Below are positions 2,701 through 63,485 of a DNA stretch of 64,000 nucleotides, piece after piece. The first letter of the stretch is position 1. Each line of letters starts with the position of its first letter. Origin of the DNA: Candidatus Nomurabacteria bacterium RIFCSPHIGHO2_02_40_30 (GTDB taxonomy: Bacteria; Patescibacteriota; Minisyncoccia; Phycocordibacterales; UBA9973); assembly GCA_001785445.1 (NCBI GenBank), contig MFTV01000016.1, positions 159,859 to 223,858 on the forward strand, read 5' to 3'. A model generated the notes under the pieces. It was not told the origin of the DNA. It ran no database searches and saw only the letters and a program-made list of their open reading frames with translations. A program made the position numbers and the translations under genes.

Positions 2701-4740
2701 TTGGTGGAAGACCACCTAAAGGAACTTAACAAAGAACAGAGGGAAGCGGCACTTCACATGAAAGGGCCGATTTTGATAGTGGCTGGCGCTGGAGCAGGGA
2801 AGACAAAAACTATCACGCACAGAATAGTGAATTTAATAAAAAACGGAGTTGCCCCTGAACGTATTTTGGCTGTAACTTTCACCAACAAAGCCGCCAAGGA
2901 AATGCGAGAACGCGTTATTGCCGAAATTGAAAAAAATGCCCAAATGACTCAAGAGCAAGACAATATTCCGTTTGTCAGCACTTTTCATTCGCTTGGAGTT
3001 TACATAATAAAAGAAAATGCGCGAATATTGGGGCTGACAAAATATTTTACAATTTTGGACGAGTCCGACTCTACTTCGCTCGTCAAAGAAGCGTTGAAAG
3101 AGATAGACATAGACCCCAAAATGTACGACCCCAAGAAAATAAAAAATATAATTAGCCGAGAAAAAGGAAAATTTATACACCTAGCCGACTATACAGAAAC
3201 AAACAGCAACAATACTTTGGGTAAAATAGTGGCGCAGGTTTGGAATTTATATGAAAAGAAAAAAGAAAAAGAAAATTCCTTGGATTTTGATGACTTGCTT
3301 TTAAAGGCGACAAAATTATTGAAAGATAACGCTGAAATTAGAAAAATATATCAGGAGAAATGGGAATATATACACATTGACGAGTATCAAGACACCAACG
3401 AAGTGCAATATTTGATGTCAAAATTGCTTTCGGAGAACAATAAAAACATCTGCGTGGTGGGAGATGCCGACCAAAACATATATTCGTGGCGGGGAGCAAA
3501 TTTGAAAAACATTTTAAGCTTTGAAAAAGATTATCCTGATGCGAAAATAGTTCTTTTAGAACAAAATTACCGTTCCACTCAAAATATTCTGGAAGCAGCC
3601 AATGTCGTCATCAAGAAAAATAAATACCGACCGGATAAAAATTTGTTTACCAAAAATAAAACCGGAGAAAAAATTTCTTTATACGAAGCACTCGATGAAA
3701 ACGACGAAGCAGACTTCGTCGCTACAAAAATTTTAGAAGTACTAGACAACGGAGTGGGCACTATTTTTGATAGGTCGCTGTCTGTGCGTGCTCGCACAGC
3801 GCTGCCTCTCGGCTCGTCAGCCTGCGAGACACCCCTCAAAAACACGCCCACTCCGTTGTCTGAAATAGCCATATTATATAGAGCCAATTTTCAGTCTAGG
3901 GCGCTGGAAGAAGCAATGCTCCGGTACAATATTTCATACCAAGTTTTAGGTGTGAAATTTTTTGAAAGAAAAGAAATTAAAGATACCTTGGCCTATCTGC
4001 GCGCTGCATTAAACAGAGACAGCCTTTCGGACGTAAAAAGAATCATAAATTTCCCTACACGGGGCATTGGCAAGGTCACCTTGGCTAAAATTTTTGCAAA
4101 TGACGTAGAAAGTCTGCCCATAAAAGTAAAAATCAAGGTTAATAACTTTTATAAAATTTTGGAAGACATAGGAGAAAAAATAAAAACTAGCAAAACCTCG
4201 GAAGTTATAAAGTTTGTGGTAAAAAAGTCCGGCATAGAAAGTGAATTATCAAATGGTACTGAAGAAGACATAGAAAGACTTGAAAATATAAAAGAACTAG
4301 CTACACTGGCGCTGAAGTATGATAATTTAGAAAATGGGGGAGGCGTAGAAAAGCTCTTGGAAGATGCGTCACTTGCAAGCGATCAAGACTCAATAATGAT
4401 TGAAGAGAAAAAAGAAACAAAAAACGCAGTTAAGCTTATGACGGTACACGCATCAAAGGGACTTGAATTTAAATATGTTTTTATCACTGGCCTTGAAGAC
4501 GGACTTTTCCCGCATCAGAAGCACAATGTGGAGGCAAGTGAAGATAGCGAAGAAGAACGTAGACTTTTCTATGTAGCGCTTACTCGCGCCAAAGAGAAGT
4601 TATTTCTATCATTTACAAATTTTCGCACCATCTTCGGTTCACGACAGATAAATGCGCCGTCGGAATTCGTTTCGGACATATCGGCAGGTTTATTAGAAAA
4701 AGAAGGGGAAAAAAATAAAATAAAAACTATCTATATATAA
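2701..4740 (+). CDS. pcrA: ATP-dependent DNA helicase, UvrD/PcrA/Rep family (TTG start)
   Basis: Walker A GAGAGKTKTITHRI; motifs AVTFTNKAAKEMRER, DEYQDTN, VVGDADQNIYSWRGA, ILYRANFQSRALEEA; C-terminal HASKGLEFKYVFITG and YVALTRAKEKL. Confidence 0.9.
   Translation: MVEDHLKELNKEQREAALHMKGPILIVAGAGAGKTKTITHRIVNLIKNGVAPERILAVTFTNKAAKEMRERVIAEIEKNAQMTQEQDNIPFVSTFHSLGVYIIKENARILGLTKYFTILDESDSTSLVKEALKEIDIDPKMYDPKKIKNIISREKGKFIHLADYTETNSNNTLGKIVAQVWNLYEKKKEKENSLDFDDLLLKATKLLKDNAEIRKIYQEKWEYIHIDEYQDTNEVQYLMSKLLSENNKNICVVGDADQNIYSWRGANLKNILSFEKDYPDAKIVLLEQNYRSTQNILEAANVVIKKNKYRPDKNLFTKNKTGEKISLYEALDENDEADFVATKILEVLDNGVGTIFDRSLSVRARTALPLGSSACETPLKNTPTPLSEIAILYRANFQSRALEEAMLRYNISYQVLGVKFFERKEIKDTLAYLRAALNRDSLSDVKRIINFPTRGIGKVTLAKIFANDVESLPIKVKIKVNNFYKILEDIGEKIKTSKTSEVIKFVVKKSGIESELSNGTEEDIERLENIKELATLALKYDNLENGGGVEKLLEDASLASDQDSIMIEEKKETKNAVKLMTVHASKGLEFKYVFITGLEDGLFPHQKHNVEASEDSEEERRLFYVALTRAKEKLFLSFTNFRTIFGSRQINAPSEFVSDISAGLLEKEGEKNKIKTIYI
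3745..3860. repeat. GC-rich palindromic element inserted in-frame in pcrA, bounded by perfect 15-bp inverted repeats
   Basis: gacaacggagtgggc (3745-3759) and gcccactccgttgtc (3846-3860) are exact reverse complements; an inner hairpin ctgtgcgtgctcgcacag (3782-3799) is present; the enclosed ~60% GC segment encodes TIFDRSLSVRARTALPLGSSACETPLKNTPTP, which sits between the conserved DNGVG and (A)ILYR(A/S)N helicase motifs and has no counterpart in UvrD/PcrA homologs. Confidence 0.55.
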
Positions 4741-4748
4741 GAAAATTT

Positions 4749-5597
4749 ATGAAAGCAAAAAAATCATTGGGACAGAATTTTTTGAAATCAGAGCCGGCTC
4801 TGCGAAAAATTGTTGAAGCAGGAGAAATAAAACCAGAGGACATAATTTTGGAAATAGGACCGGGGAAGGGTGCACTGACTAAAAAACTTTTGGAGAAGTG
4901 CAGGCATGTCATAGCTGTAGAAAAAGATTATGAACTTGTTTCTTTACTAAAAGAAAAATTCGCCGAACAGATAAAATCCAGCTCTCTTGTACTAGTGCAT
5001 GAGGACATACTGCAATTTAATATTGACGAAGCAGTTTTAACTTTTTCGAATGGTCTGGCCGGGAGAGGGACCCGGGAAACCGAGGACCTGAGAAAAAGTT
5101 CAAAACTGCGAAGTTATAAAATTATCGCCAACATTCCTTATAATATAACTGGAGCGATTTTGAAAAAATTTTTAACAGCAAAGAATCAGCCTACCACCAT
5201 GGTCTTAATGGTACAGCATGAAGTAGCTAAAAGAATAATGGCGTATGACGGCAAAGAGAGTCTCCTTTCACTTTCTGTCAAAATGTATGGTGAACCAAAA
5301 ATGGTCACGAAAGTTCCGGCGCGATATTTTTCTCCAAGCCCAAAGGTGGACTCGGCAGTAATTGCTATAAAAAATATTTCTAGAAAAATGTTTGAAGAAA
5401 ACAAAATTAATGAAGAAAATTTCTGGAAAATAGTGCATGCGGGTTTTGCCCACAAAAGAAAAAAGCTCTCTGGTAACTTAAAAAAGTTACAAATTTCGCA
5501 AGAACCGTTCTTGCGAAATTTAGGCAACAAAAGGGCGGAGGATTTGTCCCCAAAAGACTGGGTTGCTTTGGTGAAAAGTGCTATAATTAGGCCATAA
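4749..5597 (+). CDS. rsmA: 16S rRNA (adenine1518/1519-N6)-dimethyltransferase
   Basis: N-terminal KKSLGQNFL; SAM-binding EIGPGKGALT; ANIPYNIT motif; length typical of KsgA. Confidence 0.9.
   Translation: MKAKKSLGQNFLKSEPALRKIVEAGEIKPEDIILEIGPGKGALTKKLLEKCRHVIAVEKDYELVSLLKEKFAEQIKSSSLVLVHEDILQFNIDEAVLTFSNGLAGRGTRETEDLRKSSKLRSYKIIANIPYNITGAILKKFLTAKNQPTTMVLMVQHEVAKRIMAYDGKESLLSLSVKMYGEPKMVTKVPARYFSPSPKVDSAVIAIKNISRKMFEENKINEENFWKIVHAGFAHKRKKLSGNLKKLQISQEPFLRNLGNKRAEDLSPKDWVALVKSAIIRP
5042..5097. repeat. GC-rich palindromic mini-element inserted in-frame in ksgA; same family as the copy at 49921-49976
   Basis: tttttcgaatggtctggccgggagagggacccgggaaaccgaggacctgagaaaaa has conserved arms (gaatggtctggc ... 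ggaaaccgaggacctga) matching the reverse complement of the intergenic copy; it encodes ~19 extra residues (NGLAGRGTRETEDLRKS) immediately before the conserved NIPYNIT motif, where homologs have none. Confidence 0.55.
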
Positions 5598-14045: not shown

Positions 14046-14684
14046 ATGGCATTAAATGCAAAAGCAACTCAAGAGTTTGTCCCAATCAAGGAAGTACGTG
14101 ATGGCATCATCGTCCTAAAAGACGGCGGACTTCGGGCCATAATATTGGCGAATTCCACCAATTTATCCTTGAAGTCAGACGACGAACAAAAAGCGACAAT
14201 ACTTCAGTTTCAAAACTTTTTAAATACTTTGGATTTTTCTATTCAAATATCAGTGCAGTCAAGGAGGCTGGACATTCGGCCGTATCTTTTGCTTTTGGAA
14301 AATAGAATAAAATTACAAAATGAACCATTGCTTAAGTTGCAAACCAAAGAATACATAGAGTTTATTAGAAATTTTACCGATACGGTAAGCATAATGACCA
14401 AGAGTTTCTTTGTGGTGGTGCCGTACACGCACACTGTGCTAAAATCAGACACCGGCATTCTCGGGGGGCTCTTTTCCCGAAAAAACAAAGAAGAAATTAA
14501 GATTGCCAAACAAGAAGACTTCGAAGAAAAAAGATCGCAGCTGGAAGAGCGAGTAAGCGTCATCCAACAAGGTCTTAACCGTTGCGGTATAAAGTCGGCT
14601 CAACTAGGAACCGAAGAAATTGTGGAATTATTTTACAAGGTTTTTAACCCTGGGGAGTTGGAAGGTAAAATTAAGATGGAATAG
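14046..14684 (+). CDS. N-terminal portion of the VirB4/TraE/PrgJ-family T4SS ATPase, as a separate ORF
   Basis: FVPIKEVRDGIIVLKDGGLRAIILANSTNLSLKSDDEQKATILQFQNFLNTLDFSIQISVQSRRLD resembles the conserved N-terminus of Gram-positive VirB4-like ATPases; 212 aa plus the 628-aa next ORF gives ~840 aa, a typical VirB4 length. Confidence 0.5.
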   Translation: MALNAKATQEFVPIKEVRDGIIVLKDGGLRAIILANSTNLSLKSDDEQKATILQFQNFLNTLDFSIQISVQSRRLDIRPYLLLLENRIKLQNEPLLKLQTKEYIEFIRNFTDTVSIMTKSFFVVVPYTHTVLKSDTGILGGLFSRKNKEEIKIAKQEDFEEKRSQLEERVSVIQQGLNRCGIKSAQLGTEEIVELFYKVFNPGELEGKIKME

Positions 14685-14686
14685 TC

Positions 14687-14802
14687 CCGTTAGAAGCCGC
14701 GGTCGCAGTTTAATATATAATATGTTAATAGAAAATATAAAATTTAATAACTTAATCAAGCATAGTCTCGGTCTGATGACCGCGACCTGCTTCTAACGGG
14801 AT
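14687..14802. repeat. 116-bp element with GC-rich terminal inverted repeats and an AT-rich core, separating the two VirB4 ORFs
   Basis: tcccgttagaagc (left end) and gcttctaacggga (right end) are a perfect 13-bp inverted repeat, extended by imperfect GC-rich subterminal repeats (cgcggtcgcag / gaccgcgacc); the core contains a TATAAT-like box. Confidence 0.5.
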
Positions 14803-16687
14803 GGGAATCTTACAAAAGTGGTTTGGAAAAAAAAATAATGACGTAAACAGTAGTTCCGCGGGAAGGGGTGGGATGCAAGCGTCTACTCTCCCAGTGGTGC
14901 CGGAAGAGATTTACAAAAAAGCCAGTCTGGAATTCCAAGACATCATTGCGCCGTCGGCGCTTAAAATTGACTCGAAGTCTATAAGTTTGGGAGATAAAAT
15001 CGCCCGTACTTTCTTCATCATATCTTATCCTAGATTTTTGACCGATAATTGGTTTTCTCCGATAATTAATTTGGATAAAGTTTTCGATATTTCACTTTTT
15101 ATTCACCCGATAGATACTTCTCTGATGCTGCGGCAGTTCCAGAAAAAAGTAGCTGAAGTGCAAAGCCAAATAAATGTACGTGAAAGCAAGGGCATGGTTC
15201 GCGACCCCATGCTCGACACCGCCTACCAAGACTTGGAAGGCCTGCGAGATAACCTGATTCAAGCCCAACAGAAAATGTTCGATGTCGGCATTTACATTAC
15301 CATTTATGCCGACAATGAAATGGACCTATTCAAGCTAGAAAATGAAATCAAGTCAATGCTGGAGTCAAAGCTAATATACATCAAGCCAGCTCTGTTCCAA
15401 CAAGAAGATGGTTTTAAGAGCGTCATACCGATAGAAAATGACCTGTTAGGCATTAATCAAAAATTAAATTCGGAGCCGCTTTCAAGCGTGTTTCCATTTA
15501 TTTCTTTCGACCTAACCTCTGACAGAGGAATACTCTATGGCATCAACAGGCATAACTCCAGCCTGGTTATTTTCGACCGGTTTTCTCTGGAAAACTACAA
15601 CTCGGTAACCTTCGCCAAAGCAGGGTCCGGCAAATCATATGCGACCAAACTCGAAATTCTAAGGTCCCTAATGTTTGACATCGATGTTATCGTTATTGAT
15701 CCGGAAAGGGAATATGAATTTCTTTCCGAGGCTGTCGGGGGGAGGTATTTTAATATATCTCTTTCTTCCGACCACCACATCAATCCATTTGACTTGCCAA
15801 TACCGCGCGAAGACGAAACCGCCGAGGATGTTTTGCGATCAAATATTATAAACTTAGTCGGGCTTTTCCGGCTTATGCTCGGCGGGTTGACTCCGGAAGA
15901 AGACTCAATCGTAGATAAGGCTATTTCAGAAACTTATGCCATCAAAGATATCACTCCGGAGTCGGATTTTTCGAATATTGAACCGCCGCTCCTTTCGGAC
16001 TTTGAAATGGTGCTCTCTGGCATGGAAGGCAGCGATTCGATCGTGGTGCGTTTGGCAAAATATACCAAAGGCTCTTGGGCGACATTTCTAAACAGACCGT
16101 CAAATGTGGATATAAATAAAAAATTCGTTGTTTTTTCCGTTCGAGACATGGAAGACGAATTAAAACCGGTGGCCATGTATATAATCATGCATTATATATG
16201 GAATGCCATACGCAAAAATTTGAAGAAACGTTTACTGGTGGTGGATGAAGCATGGTGGATGATGAAGTCTGAAGATACCGCTTCATTCTTGTATTCCTTG
16301 GCTAAAAGAGGAAGAAAATACTACCTTGGGCTTGCTACTATCACTCAAGATGCGGCGGACTTTATGAATTCTCCGTATGGGGTGCCGATAATCACTAACT
16401 CCTCTATTCAACTTCTCCTGAAACAGTCTCCGACCACTATTGATATTTTACAAAAAACTTTCAACCTGACCGATGAAGAAAAGTACCTGCTTTTGGAGTC
16501 GGGCGTGGGCGAAGGGATATTCTTTGCGGGGCTGAAACATGTGGCCATTAAAATAATCGCTTCTTATACCGAAGACCAAATCATTACCTCTGACCCATCG
16601 CAAATATTATCAAACAGAAAAGCTAAAGAAGATTTTGAAAAAGGAGAAATGGCGCCTGCCAACCCTCCGGAAAAAGTGTTACAATAA
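14801..16687 (+). CDS. virB4: Type IV secretion ATPase, VirB4/TraC/TrbE family (C-terminal ATPase portion)
   Basis: Walker A FAKAGSGKSYAT; Walker B LLVVDEAWWMM; conserved LGDKIARTFFIISYPRFL region; ITQDAADF motif. Confidence 0.8.
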   Translation: MGILQKWFGKKNNDVNSSSAGRGGMQASTLPVVPEEIYKKASLEFQDIIAPSALKIDSKSISLGDKIARTFFIISYPRFLTDNWFSPIINLDKVFDISLFIHPIDTSLMLRQFQKKVAEVQSQINVRESKGMVRDPMLDTAYQDLEGLRDNLIQAQQKMFDVGIYITIYADNEMDLFKLENEIKSMLESKLIYIKPALFQQEDGFKSVIPIENDLLGINQKLNSEPLSSVFPFISFDLTSDRGILYGINRHNSSLVIFDRFSLENYNSVTFAKAGSGKSYATKLEILRSLMFDIDVIVIDPEREYEFLSEAVGGRYFNISLSSDHHINPFDLPIPREDETAEDVLRSNIINLVGLFRLMLGGLTPEEDSIVDKAISETYAIKDITPESDFSNIEPPLLSDFEMVLSGMEGSDSIVVRLAKYTKGSWATFLNRPSNVDINKKFVVFSVRDMEDELKPVAMYIIMHYIWNAIRKNLKKRLLVVDEAWWMMKSEDTASFLYSLAKRGRKYYLGLATITQDAADFMNSPYGVPIITNSSIQLLLKQSPTTIDILQKTFNLTDEEKYLLLESGVGEGIFFAGLKHVAIKIIASYTEDQIITSDPSQILSNRKAKEDFEKGEMAPANPPEKVLQ

Positions 16688-32622: not shown

Positions 32623-33393
32623 TTGACGGAGCCCATGAAAGGGTTTTTTATGAAGAAGTTTTTGATGGCCGTAGCCATCATCGTTGTGATGACGACGATG
32701 GCTCATGGCCAGCAGGTAGTCTTGGCTCCCGGAAGAGTTCCGGGGGTCGAGGGCTACCTTCCTGTGGTCGTGGCTGGTGACGGAAACCAGACCACACTAC
32801 TAGTGCGGGGGCCAGCAGGCACAGCGAAAAAAGTTGGTTTCGACTTGTTCGACCAGGATGGTCAAGCGAGTCAGCTCCTCGTAAATGGGGAGCCAGCAGT
32901 TTTATTCGTGGCGGTTACTAATCCCATGACGGGAAAGGTTGTCACCGAACTGACATGGAGTGGTCAGTTCAAGGTGGTTTGGGTGAAAGTTACCCAGCCA
33001 CTGAACATAAACGGAGTGCCAGAGACCTCGGTCTCCATGGCGCTCCAAAAGGTTATCGGCGCAGGTGTCGTTCCCTTCGCCGCTGACCTTGCTCCCGTGG
33101 AAGCGACGAAAGTCGCCACCTTCTACGGCGGGAAAAGAACTGGGTTGGCTTTTTGCAACCCGAACGACACAACCGTAACGATTTCGATCACCAGAGAGGG
33201 GGCGGAGGTCGTTACAAAAAATCTTGCGCCAAAAGCGCAAGTCTCCCTTTTCCTGGGGGAGTTGTTCTCAAAGTTTTCTTCAGGAGTCGAGTTCATCCGA
33301 ATCGACTCCAGTCTGCCGGTGGCCGTCATGCCACTCGTCACAGACGGAGAAAATTTCTTCACCCTGTCGGTGGACAGAGTGAGGGGGAATTAG
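32623..33393 (+). CDS. Secreted hypothetical protein with atypically high GC (probable start at the ATG of MKKFLMAVAIIVV, ~32650; the ORF-track start is TTG)
   Basis: Signal peptide; gene body ~55% GC versus ~38% in surrounding genes; flanked by a local AT-rich promoter and a GC-rich terminator. Confidence 0.55.
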   Translation: MTEPMKGFFMKKFLMAVAIIVVMTTMAHGQQVVLAPGRVPGVEGYLPVVVAGDGNQTTLLVRGPAGTAKKVGFDLFDQDGQASQLLVNGEPAVLFVAVTNPMTGKVVTELTWSGQFKVVWVKVTQPLNINGVPETSVSMALQKVIGAGVVPFAADLAPVEATKVATFYGGKRTGLAFCNPNDTTVTISITREGAEVVTKNLAPKAQVSLFLGELFSKFSSGVEFIRIDSSLPVAVMPLVTDGENFFTLSVDRVRGN

Positions 33394-33415
33394 GGCGGTG
33401 CGAGGAGCACCGCCC
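33393..33415 (+). terminator. GC-rich hairpin terminator, followed by two further hairpins (~33416-33436, ~33459-33482)
   Basis: gggcggtgc-gagga-gcaccgccc; then ccagaagc-cttttg-gcttctgg; then gccggaagcaaaatgtcttctggc followed by attttttatt. Confidence 0.55.
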
Positions 33416-33526
33416 CCAGAAGCCTTTTGCTTCTGGTTCATATCGTTTTTATATGTGCCGGAAGCAAAATGTCTTCTGGCATTTTTTATTGCCCAAAATT
33501 GATTTGGTGTATAACTTTTTATTGCA

Positions 33527-49512: not shown

Positions 49513-49909
49513 CAGAAATAATTTTTTTTATTACCTCGTCTACTTCTCCTTTTTCATATTTTTTGGTGGCAAATTTAGGCAGACCGTCGCTGAAATATCT
49601 TGGAATCAAATGTATATGGAAATGCGGTACGTCTGTCCCTCCCACGGAGACTTGCACATAGTCGCATGATAATCCATTTTTTATGGAGAGCATTAATTTT
49701 TTAACTAATTTAAAAATCTCCGACACGGTTTCATCATCGGCTTCCTGCATCCAGACGAAATGCTTTTTAGGTATGACGAGGATATGGCCGCTGGAGACCG
49801 GCTCTATATCTAAAAAGGCGAAGAAACTATCATTTTCATAAATCTTGTCGCAAGGAATTTCTTTGTTTATAATTTTGCAAAAAATACAATCATTCATAGA
49901 AAGTTTCAC
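49502..49909 (-). CDS. HIT-family nucleotide hydrolase (probable GTG start, or the internal Met)
   Basis: Histidine-triad motif VPHFHIHLIP; 135 aa. Confidence 0.8.
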   Translation of the reverse strand: MKLSMNDCIFCKIINKEIPCDKIYENDSFFAFLDIEPVSSGHILVIPKKHFVWMQEADDETVSEIFKLVKKLMLSIKNGLSCDYVQVSVGGTDVPHFHIHLIPRYFSDGLPKFATKKYEKGEVDEVIKKIISAIA

Positions 49910-49920
49910 AAAATCAAAGT

Positions 49921-49976
49921 TTTTTCAGGTCCTCGGTTTCCTGGGGCCCCGCGCCCCAGCCAGACCATTCAAAAAC
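49921..49976. repeat. Intergenic copy of the GC-rich palindromic mini-element also found inside ksgA
   Basis: The reverse complement gtttttgaatggtctggctggggcgcggggccccaggaaaccgaggacctgaaaaa matches the ksgA copy in both arms, while the central stem differs but keeps self-complementarity (cggg...cccg vs tggggc...gcccca). Confidence 0.55.
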
Positions 49977-50020
49977 TTTATTTTGCAAAACTTTCTATAT
50001 TATATGCTAAAATTCCACTT

Positions 50021-63062: not shown

Positions 63063-63103
63063 TATACTCATATAATTTTACATTACCAAAAGAATTTGGT
63101 ATA

Positions 63104-63131
63104 ATTATGACATTATTAATAATGTCATAAT
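63104..63131. promoter_or_regulatory. 28-bp perfect palindrome overlapping a TATAAT box, immediately upstream of the ArsR-family gene; candidate autoregulatory operator
   Basis: attatgacatt-attaat-aatgtcataat; overlaps the putative -10 tataat (~63100-63105), 7 nt upstream of the ATG at 63138; half-site attatgacatta recurs at 63387-63398. Confidence 0.5.
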
Positions 63132-63137
63132 TAAAAT

Positions 63138-63413
63138 ATGAAAAAAGCAGTAAATTATAAATATTTTGAAAAAATTATAAAAGGAGGGGCAAATCATCGC
63201 AGATTGCAAATACTTTTCTTGCTAGAGAAAAATCCAGGCTTGTCTGTAGAGCTTGTTTCTTCAAATCTCAATGTCGTGTTTGTTACCATTGCTAGCCACC
63301 TGCAGAAGCTCCATCATTCTGGCCTTGTTAGCAAACAATACATTGGACGAACAGTTGTTCATCATGTAACTAAACGAGGGAAGGATATTATGACATTATG
63401 TAGAATGTTATAA
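63138..63413 (+). CDS. ArsR/SmtB-family winged-helix transcriptional regulator
   Basis: NHRRLQILFLLEKNPGLSVELVSSNLNVVFVTIASHLQKLHHSGLV matches the HTH_20 pattern. Confidence 0.65.
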   Translation: MKKAVNYKYFEKIIKGGANHRRLQILFLLEKNPGLSVELVSSNLNVVFVTIASHLQKLHHSGLVSKQYIGRTVVHHVTKRGKDIMTLCRML

Positions 63414-63485
63414 TATAGATACTTTTCAAATAGTTTTCCACATTTTGTTTTATTTTTTATCTAAAATTTTGATATAATTATTCCA

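Follow-up and report, generated by a model that had tools for sequence, protein, structure and literature searches.

What is a GC-rich, self-complementary piece of DNA doing inside the coding sequence of a helicase gene, and how does the gene stay open around it? This question is raised by the pcrA/uvrD gene in a stretch of 64,000 nt (hereafter the window) of Candidatus Nomurabacteria bacterium RIFCSPHIGHO2_02_40_30 (GenBank assembly GCA_001785445.1, contig MFTV01000016.1, positions 159,859 to 223,858 of the forward strand). The original prediction, made from the letters of the window, had described the segment as an in-frame palindromic insertion similar to the Rickettsia palindromic elements (RPEs). 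We report here that copies of this element are dispersed over intergenic DNA and several gene families, in the latter in frame, that a precise inversion of the element separates near-identical strains, that such flips recur on the helicase tree with both orientations open, and that the stems covary around a core constrained at the nucleotide level. The RPE-like reading of the element is supported by these observations. Taken together, we consider it likely that the element represents a family of short GC-rich hairpin repeats of the Nomurabacteria/Paceibacteria, which is translated through in genes and flips in place.

The imperfect palindrome reaches approximately from position 3740 to 3865. 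The element proper, from 3744 to 3861, ends on both sides in an outer arm; the two arms are a perfect inverted repeat of 16 nt, separated by 86 nt, so that the exact terminal repeats had been recognized correctly, at a length of 16 nt and not of 15. In a random 64-kb sequence, about 0.005 perfect 16-nt inverted repeats within 300 nt would be expected by chance according to our own arithmetic, and no third copy of the arm was found within the window at up to 3 mismatches. The announced GC content of about 60% and the richness in hairpins were confirmed: the GC content is 58% over the 118 nt of the element and 61% in the bin 3750–3849, compared to 40% for the window and 30–40% in the adjacent bins. 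The predicted RNA fold of the element is a three-way hairpin of −62.4 kcal/mol, while dinucleotide shuffles reached −35.3 ± 3.9 kcal/mol, corresponding to z = −7.0, with none of 200 shuffles folding as well. We call the orientation of this copy relative to its host gene F and the opposite one R. The conserved core has the layout (A/G)GGTCGCTGTCT-stem-TGCT-stem-AGCGCTGCCTCTCGG..CGTC..CCTGCGAGACACCCC, and the alignment of F and R elements in a common orientation yields GGGTCGCTGTCT-(5-bp stem)-TGCT-(stem)-AGCGCTGCCTCTCGG..CGTC..CCTGCGAGACACCCC. Rfam contained nothing relevant, neither for the whole window at the gathering threshold nor for the element at E ≤ 10, there was no Pfam family for the element, and searches of the window for tRNA and tmRNA found none.

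The host open reading frame (ORF) belongs to the UvrD/PcrA family, with matches to PF00580 (UvrD-helicase, E = 6e-86) and PF13361 (UvrD_C, E = 1e-62), and the closest solved structure is that of PcrA (1pjr, E = 6e-149). The HMMER alignment between the window protein and Geobacillus PcrA breaks precisely at the element. Here, 36 residues of the ORF (352–387) occupy the place of 5 residues of Geobacillus PcrA (348–352), a net gain of 31 residues where about 32 had been predicted, and the insertion is in frame as claimed, within an intact ORF of 679 codons. The alignment to PcrA homologues, which had been proposed as a check, places the insertion in a loop of domain 2A, between a long helix and the strand leading into motif IV. 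The outermost bases of the element contribute an Asp codon at the left and Leu-Ser at the right. The DNGVG encoded by the left arm had been called conserved, but it is no conserved helicase motif: only the Asp is kept, while close orthologues read DSGAD, DGGTN or DNGAG. In an AlphaFold2 (AF2) model, residues 351–382 form a coil with a predicted local distance difference test (pLDDT) score below 50, flanked by a helix (333–349) and a strand (389–393). This model is weak, being built on a shallow alignment of close relatives with a mean pLDDT of 66.7, and it was used solely for the low confidence of the insert. The modelled coil is consistent with a tolerated loop, although it is not strong evidence for one.

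Among 120 homologues of the window protein at 73–100% identity, nearly all carry some insertion at the same pcrA site, with P0085 and P0097 as the exceptions, and the site is hypervariable in length and sequence among these orthologues. It is empty, holding only 14–17 residues, in sister lineages at 69–75% identity (L012, L016–L019, L048; 69–79% with P0085 and P0097 included), and the same empty loop of 14–17 residues is found in all more distant bacteria. The scan of genome loci with peptide patterns covered about 20 loci of close relatives and many distant Bacilli, which served as outgroups. Because the site is empty in the sister lineages and outgroups and the PcrA alignment splits at the element, the pcrA insert is a derived, lineage-specific gain; a segment common to all orthologues, which would have spoken against an insertion, was thus not found. 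Identical copies of the window protein come from Candidatus Nomurabacteria assemblies and were seen on 25 and 71 contigs.

If the element is a repeat, other copies should exist, as the original prediction had pointed out. Metagenome contigs were scanned with the core pattern CCTCTCGGNNCGTCNNCCTGCGAGA, which gave at least 124 matches in at least 120 loci. Among the matches listed, 35 of 124 lie in pcrA and 89 elsewhere, and most of the latter sit in long ORFs where they are read as F or R peptide. From metagenome and genome contigs of the Candidate Phyla Radiation (CPR), at least 113 distinct core copies were recovered (family 1), with palindromes of 82–139 nt in length. The hosts identified by Pfam are queuine tRNA-ribosyltransferase (TGT), class-I IleRS, TsaD, ArgRS, Pep_deformylase, RecG and the methionyl-tRNA formyltransferase domain Formyl_trans_N, corresponding to copies in frame in tgt, ileS, tsaD, argS, def, recG and fmt, to which ksgA is added. 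Further copies are located directly upstream of the genes for DHQ (3-dehydroquinate) synthase (aroB) and TrmD (trmD). A profile search with the F peptide in 1.84 billion representative proteins returned 30 matches at E ≤ 1e-3, many of them fragments, and added KsgA and pilin leader regions as hosts; this search is a poor census because the representatives, chosen at 50% identity, are often proteins without the insert. The copies are hence dispersed, in frame in at least eight housekeeping gene families other than pcrA and also intergenic, as an RPE-like element should be, with a single family-1 copy in the window itself. A regulatory mRNA hairpin specific to pcrA is rejected, since the core is present in many genes and between genes, in both orientations, and since its wobble pairs show no bias towards the sense strand.

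Single contigs can carry more than one copy. On one contig of 122 kb, both ileS and pcrA contain the element (L104, L125). One tgt gene has two family-1 copies about 480 nt apart (L102:4220–4815), one ahead of the LFGIVQGG motif and the other behind the zinc motif CxCxxC, and in the tgt gene of L107 the first copy is in the R and the second in the F orientation. Moreover, there is a second pcrA site between motifs Ia and Ib, which is filled in L009 (188–303), P0119, L115 and L131, each time with own, different arms, and which is empty in the window.

The outer arms behave differently from the core. In the in-gene copies they are 13–27 nt long, specific for the locus and run into host codons; between loci they are unrelated, and a weak AT-rich consensus alone adjoins the core. 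At the same pcrA site, the arms of other genomes differ in sequence yet remain mutually complementary. In about 23 family-1 copies, most of them located between genes, the arms are short and the element is framed by CGCTCG ... (A)CTCGCT, often with ..GTTGG after it (among them L112, L114, L121, L122, L139, L154, L160, L169, L174 and L201). This bracket resembles a direct repeat; it may be a target-site duplication of CTCG, or else consist of conserved motifs of the ends or of cleavage.

The pairing of the element was evaluated on an alignment (A1) of 110 distinct copies, with 500 shuffles and slid partners as controls. Watson-Crick or wobble pairs occupy 89.9% of the pair cells, compared to 68% in the shuffled alignments and 37–50% with slid partners. 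The covariation score is 0.545 versus 0.165 after shuffling, a value not reached by any of the 500 shuffles, while the slid controls stayed at or below 0.16. In hairpin 1 (helix 3), 99.2% of the cells are paired and all 7 pairs show double changes, for example GC in 55, CG in 50, UA in 3 and AU in 2 copies. Could the element then be no repeat at all, but a fast-evolving, lineage-specific PcrA linker with an accidental palindrome, or an artefact of assembly? The hypervariability of the site in length and sequence and the origin of all data from metagenome assemblies would fit such an explanation. It is refuted by the dispersed copies together with the covariation: many assemblies made independently in different studies contain the same 66-nt core, both between genes and within genes that are unrelated, the covariation is statistically extreme, the identical protein recurs on 25 and 71 contigs, and the fold has a z-score of −7. 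We therefore assign this explanation a probability close to nil.

Which molecule is it whose pairing is maintained? In hairpin 1, about 0.4% of the pairs are G-U, and when the copies were oriented by their host mRNA, 39 G-U stood against 33 A-C combinations. There is no excess of G-U on the sense strand, and therefore pairing is kept on both strands, which points to a cause acting at the level of the DNA or independently of orientation for the complementarity, rather than to an RNA structure of the sense strand. As a separate and weak bias in the same alignment, the mismatches of the outer stem on the F strand of the core were A-C/C-A in 108 and G-U/U-G in 58 cases, whatever the orientation of the host; one specific strand may fold.

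The core is also more conserved than the gene in which it resides. Between orthologous pcrA copies, the unforced blocks of the core are 92% identical. Identity is lower in the flanking coding DNA (73%, and 52% when third codon positions alone are counted), in the variable stem (62%) and in the arms (50%). One explanation is that the core is a functional structured nucleic acid, such as an RNA motif or a single-stranded DNA site for priming, protein binding or processing, and that the coding copies are kept for this function. The high identity of the core fits well here, as do the conserved unpaired blocks beside freely covarying stems and the weak strand bias just described. An mRNA element is unlikely, because the copies lie in both orientations to transcription and lack a wobble preference on the sense strand; furthermore, Rfam gave no match even at E ≤ 10, neither a protein nor a phenotype is known to be associated with the element, and the scarcity of G-U would also fit a purely mutational homogenization of palindromes. 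We consider a function of this kind as the reason for the coding copies very unlikely.

The F type, to which the window belongs, encodes the peptide GSLS..RAR..ALPLGSSACETP and was found in 31 proteins among the 120 orthologues. The commonest type of insert at this site is the R type, RGVSQADEPRGSAPRARGDSDP, in 40 of the 120. When the reverse complement of the window element is read in the frame of the gene, it is open and yields DNGVGVFLRGVSQADEPRGSAVRARTDSDLSKIVPTPLS, the core of which is identical to the R-type insert of P0049. Judged from these sequences, F and R are one DNA segment in opposite orientations. Pairs that differ by inversion were recovered by BLAST on contexts with the core masked. 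The flanks of L001 (GCA_000991975.1) are 99.5–99.6% identical to those of L002–L004 and L156, with 14 differences in the 10 kb upstream; the 16-nt arms are identical (AGATAGCGGCGCGGAT), and the interior is the exact reverse complement except for 1 nt. After masking of the insert, F and R are found intermingled on the helicase tree, and at least 15 flips among its 68 leaves are required by parsimony. Both orientations were found at the tgt, tsaD, fmt and pcrA sites.

The reading frames follow the same logic. Relative to their hosts, the 113 unique copies are in frame R1 (50), F0 (37), F2 (13), R0 (10) and F1 (3), with none in R2, and it is the frames F1 and R2 that usually contain stops. From the coordinates of the window, an inversion in place of a symmetric hairpin with this geometry converts F0 to R1, F2 to R0 and F1 to R2. 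The frame of the inversion partner is open in 43 of the 47 copies with an unambiguous host frame, compared to 31–60% for the two remaining opposite-strand frames. This pattern would be expected if the element is translated through and only those flips survive that preserve the gene.

Such findings raise the possibility of a programmed intragenic inverton, in which a dedicated invertase would flip a host-controlled switch and alternate the surface loops of PcrA and other enzymes. The class of recoding intragenic invertons is documented (PMC10028968), and the element shares with them the inverted repeats around a segment lying wholly within the gene and the two open orientations that occur naturally, even between near-identical strains; the core is, in addition, conserved beyond neutral expectation. 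A sequence-specific recombinase fits poorly with arms whose sequence changes from locus to locus and from genome to genome, as it is in the arms that the crossover must fall. The element is moreover a dispersed repeat with intergenic copies; the two peptides, loops of low complexity in housekeeping enzymes, show no evident difference in function; no invertase was connected with the element, recombinases not having been searched for; and the F orientation is shared by all 9 of the near-identical PcrA variants from the species of the window. A dedicated switch of this type appears quite unlikely to us.

We favor the hairpin repeat that flips in place, which would work as follows. The repeats measure about 100–135 nt. 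Their conserved core of about 66 nt forms two small hairpins, closed by a long outer stem that differs from locus to locus. The family would have inserted at many places, namely at surface-loop positions of essential housekeeping genes (pcrA, recG, tgt, tsaD, ileS, argS, def, fmt, ksgA) and in intergenic DNA, and would survive in genes by offering a stop-free frame for a peptide rich in Gly, Ser, Pro, Arg and Ala that the loop tolerates. Because identical inverted arms bound it, the segment would invert in place repeatedly. Each inversion would exchange F0 for R1, both of them open, leaving the gene intact and changing the loop peptide alone (GSLS..ALPLGSSACETP versus GVSQADxPRGSA..DSDP). Homology or structure probably drives the inversion, for instance through template switching or when the two arms recombine in a hairpin or cruciform; a dedicated, sequence-specific invertase is the less likely cause, as the crossover must fall in the arms and these differ at every locus. 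Spreading would likewise proceed by a non-autonomous, hairpin-dependent mechanism using some enzyme. In a wider reading, which we regard as unlikely, the core would function as a structured nucleic acid, or would serve a hairpin-directed recombination system peculiar to CPR bacteria as its recognition module, and flipping would constitute a two-state recoding switch for surface loops of essential enzymes throughout the lineage.

Several points weigh against the hairpin repeat as just outlined. The inversions observed separate strains and lineages and do not come from within a single population, all sequences are metagenome assemblies, and the window holds but one family-1 copy. At the in-gene copies, no target-site duplication is visible and no transposase or donor element was identified, a search for a parent element not having been made, so that we infer mobility from the distribution of the copies only. 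The AF2 model that backs a tolerated loop has the low overall confidence given above. Finally, merely tolerated selfish DNA should decay, yet the core outconserves its host gene, which suggests that the core either has a function constraining it at the nucleotide level or is continually renewed.

Family 1 is not alone. Other types of insert at the pcrA site are long hairpins as well: 'NGLAG.GT..TEDLSKS' and 'FSQVLGSPGPSPGQTIRKS' are the two orientations of a family 2, while 'RKFSAENF' and 'ENFQQKI' are those of a family 3. Two family-2 copies are present in the window (Table 1), one of them in ksgA/rsmA. The reverse complement of this copy reads FSQVLGFPGPSPGQTIRKS, which is another insert type of the pcrA site. 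The two copies have the blocks TTTTT.GAATGGTCTGGC and GGAAACCGAGGACCTGA in common; their inner stem differs in sequence, with compensation, and their arms are specific to the locus. One and the same site can be used by different families: in P0135, a family-1 element occupies the very ksgA site that holds family 2 in the window, and tandem or nested combinations of family 3 with 1, or of 2 with 1, exist in the pcrA loop (P0027, P0029, P0101, L183:610). These combinations suggest that insertion prefers existing palindromes or that the pcrA site is a hotspot.

Table 1 Positions in the window of the pcrA gene, the parts of its family-1 element and the family-2 copies
Feature	Position	Strand	Remarks and basis
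Host gene pcrA/uvrD	2701–4740	+	679 aa, TTG start, frame intact; ORF list and translation, Pfam, match to 1pjr
Family-1 palindromic element of 118 nt, oriented as F with respect to the gene	3744–3861		Inverted repeat, fold
Left outer arm AGACAACGGAGTGGGC, encodes ..DNGVG	3744–3759		Locus-specific, co-varies with the right arm
Inserted peptide VGTIFDRSLSVRARTALPLGSSACETPLKNTPTPLS	3754–3861	+	Residues 352–387; replaces the 5-residue PcrA loop
Inner left arm TTTTTGATAGGT, pairs with 3831–3842	3764–3775		Inverted repeat; helix 2; weakly conserved AT-rich family arm 'ttc.ttt'
Conserved family core, about 64–66 nt	3772–3835		nhmmer envelope; consensus of 113 unique copies
Hairpin 1, CTGTGCG-TGCT-CGCACAG	3782–3799		Inner 5 bp hypervariable between copies, always Watson-Crick
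Hairpin 2, CTC.CGGCT-CGTC-AGCC.G.GAG	3806–3828		Helix 4; nearly invariant except two compensated pairs
Inner right arm ACCCCTCAAAAA	3831–3842		Inverted repeat, consensus, helix 2
Right outer arm GCCCACTCCGTTGTCT, encodes ..PTPLS	3846–3861		Complement of the left arm
Family-2 element in ksgA/rsmA (4749–5597), in frame, peptide ..FSNGLAGRGTRETEDLRKS..	5031–5110		Minimum free energy (MFE) −38.7, z about −4.8
Second family-2 copy, intergenic	49896–49998		Inverted repeat, motif scan, alignment with the ksgA copy

Other structured sequences were noticed in the window. The 3′ part of the ksgA coding sequence (..QISQEPFLRNL..) contains a perfect palindrome of 31 nt at 5491–5521 (AAATTTCGCAAGAAC-C-GTTCTTGCGAAATTT). 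A long intergenic hairpin lies at 14685–14801 between the ORFs 14046–14684 and 14801–16687; its perfect outer arms of 13 nt continue into a GC stem, its AT-rich interior measures about 60 nt and includes CTGATGA, and it gave no Rfam match at the gathering threshold. A GC-rich (55–66%), unusually structured block extends from 32650 to 33500, with GC-corrected MFE residuals of z −4 to −6. The ORF overlapping it (32623–33393) has no Pfam match and no significant Rfam match was obtained; the block at 32.6–33.5 kb was checked as a cluster of palindromic elements and is not one. The AT-rich palindrome ATTATGACATTATTAATAATGTCATAAT occurs twice, at 63102–63133 and 63387–63414, 255 nt apart, and looks like an operator.

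CPR bacteria, also named Patescibacteria, possess tiny genomes and few recognized mobile elements. Our results indicate that they harbor families of hairpin repeats that colonize the coding sequences of essential genes, as RPEs do in the reduced genomes of Rickettsia. With their recurrent in-place inversion, dual open frames and conserved core, they could serve as a natural system for asking how a protein can accommodate and gain new loops, by what means short inverted repeats bring about inversion in the absence of a dedicated enzyme and why selfish-looking DNA is conserved. For CPR phylogenomics, it matters that the inserts inflate and scramble the alignments of marker genes such as those for aminoacyl-tRNA synthetases, TsaD, KsgA and PcrA; the inserts are at the same time recognizable markers at the strain level. 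The original prediction that such an element had not been characterized for this kind of genome agrees with our finding no description of such elements for CPR/Patescibacteria in Rfam, Pfam or the searchable literature, the coverage of which is incomplete, so that a prior description is possible.

How does the element compare to known systems? In plastid DNA, small inversions are associated with hairpins, in which the loops between short inverted repeats flip recurrently and homoplasiously. In fungal mitochondria, GC-rich palindromic clusters or double-hairpin elements populate AT-rich genomes in both orientations, sometimes in frame in coding sequences. Both differ from the present family in being organellar and mostly non-coding, and a dual-open-frame design is not known to have been described for either of them.

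Among bacterial repeats, the repetitive extragenic palindromic (REP) sequences and their hairpin-forming doublets (REPINs), mobilized by REP-associated tyrosine transposases (RAYTs), as well as the hairpin MITEs (miniature transposable elements with inverted repeats), such as Correia, ERIC and BOX, resemble our family in being short non-autonomous hairpin repeats, REPINs measuring about 100 nt. The mobility of these elements is thought to depend on hairpins and single-stranded DNA. REP/REPIN sequences are, however, extragenic, with a conserved terminal tetranucleotide and an associated RAYT gene, whereas most copies reported here are intragenic. Typical MITEs have conserved terminal inverted repeats, common to all copies in the classical definition, and target-site duplications; neither was found in the in-gene copies of the present family with their locus-specific arms, and the direct-repeat-like bracket CGCTCG...CTCGCT is restricted to the intergenic subgroup.

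Recoding intragenic invertons consist of a short intragenic stretch between inverted repeats, the inversion of which alters one part of the encoded protein and leaves the remainder in frame (Chanin et al., PMC10028968). The element reported here is likewise flanked by inverted repeats, lies wholly within the gene and recodes upon inversion without introducing a stop. The invertons of Chanin et al. (PMC10028968), described from Bacteroides, are single-locus systems with presumed invertase-mediated flipping and heterogeneity within populations, whereas our family is a dispersed repeat with locus-specific arms and differences seen between strains and lineages only.

The closest parallel is provided by the RPEs, which were reportedly introduced as Rickettsia palindromic elements by Ogata et al. 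in 2000. RPE-1 to RPE-10 are described as palindromic interspersed repeats of 100–150 bp that occupy genes and spacers, keep the frame of the housekeeping genes into which they have inserted and include shared insertions of ancient date (PMC10969869, PMC1779305). Our family shares with them the size of about 100–150 bp, the interspersed occurrence in many copies, several of them per contig or genome (L102, L104/L125, L009), the palindrome with a stable predicted hairpin, the location in genes and intergenic DNA of a reduced AT-rich genome, and the in-frame insertion into unrelated housekeeping genes, aminoacyl-tRNA synthetases included. The positions of the added peptide may likewise be compatible with the fold: in pcrA, the one gene mapped, the insert takes the place of a 5-residue loop between a helix and the motif IV strand and is seen as a low-pLDDT coil in the weak AF2 model. 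Both groups include ancient orthologous insertions common to a clade, and neither has a known transposase. Differences exist in the host, which belongs to the CPR/Patescibacteria and not to the Rickettsiales, sequence homology to the RPE families not being established; in the copy number, which looks low with one family-1 and two family-2 copies in 64 kb; in the locus-specific outer arms; and in the flipping in place with both orientations open, around a core that outconserves the host gene. Such in-place flipping with both orientations open is not known to have been reported for RPEs, and neither this flipping, nor the two open orientations, nor the conservation of the core beyond that of the host gene had been mentioned in the original prediction. 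An RPE-like in-frame palindromic family in a new phylum, combining recurrent in-place inversion, dual open frames and a conserved core, appears undescribed. By analogy, and without claiming membership in the RPEs, we propose that the element works like an RPE.

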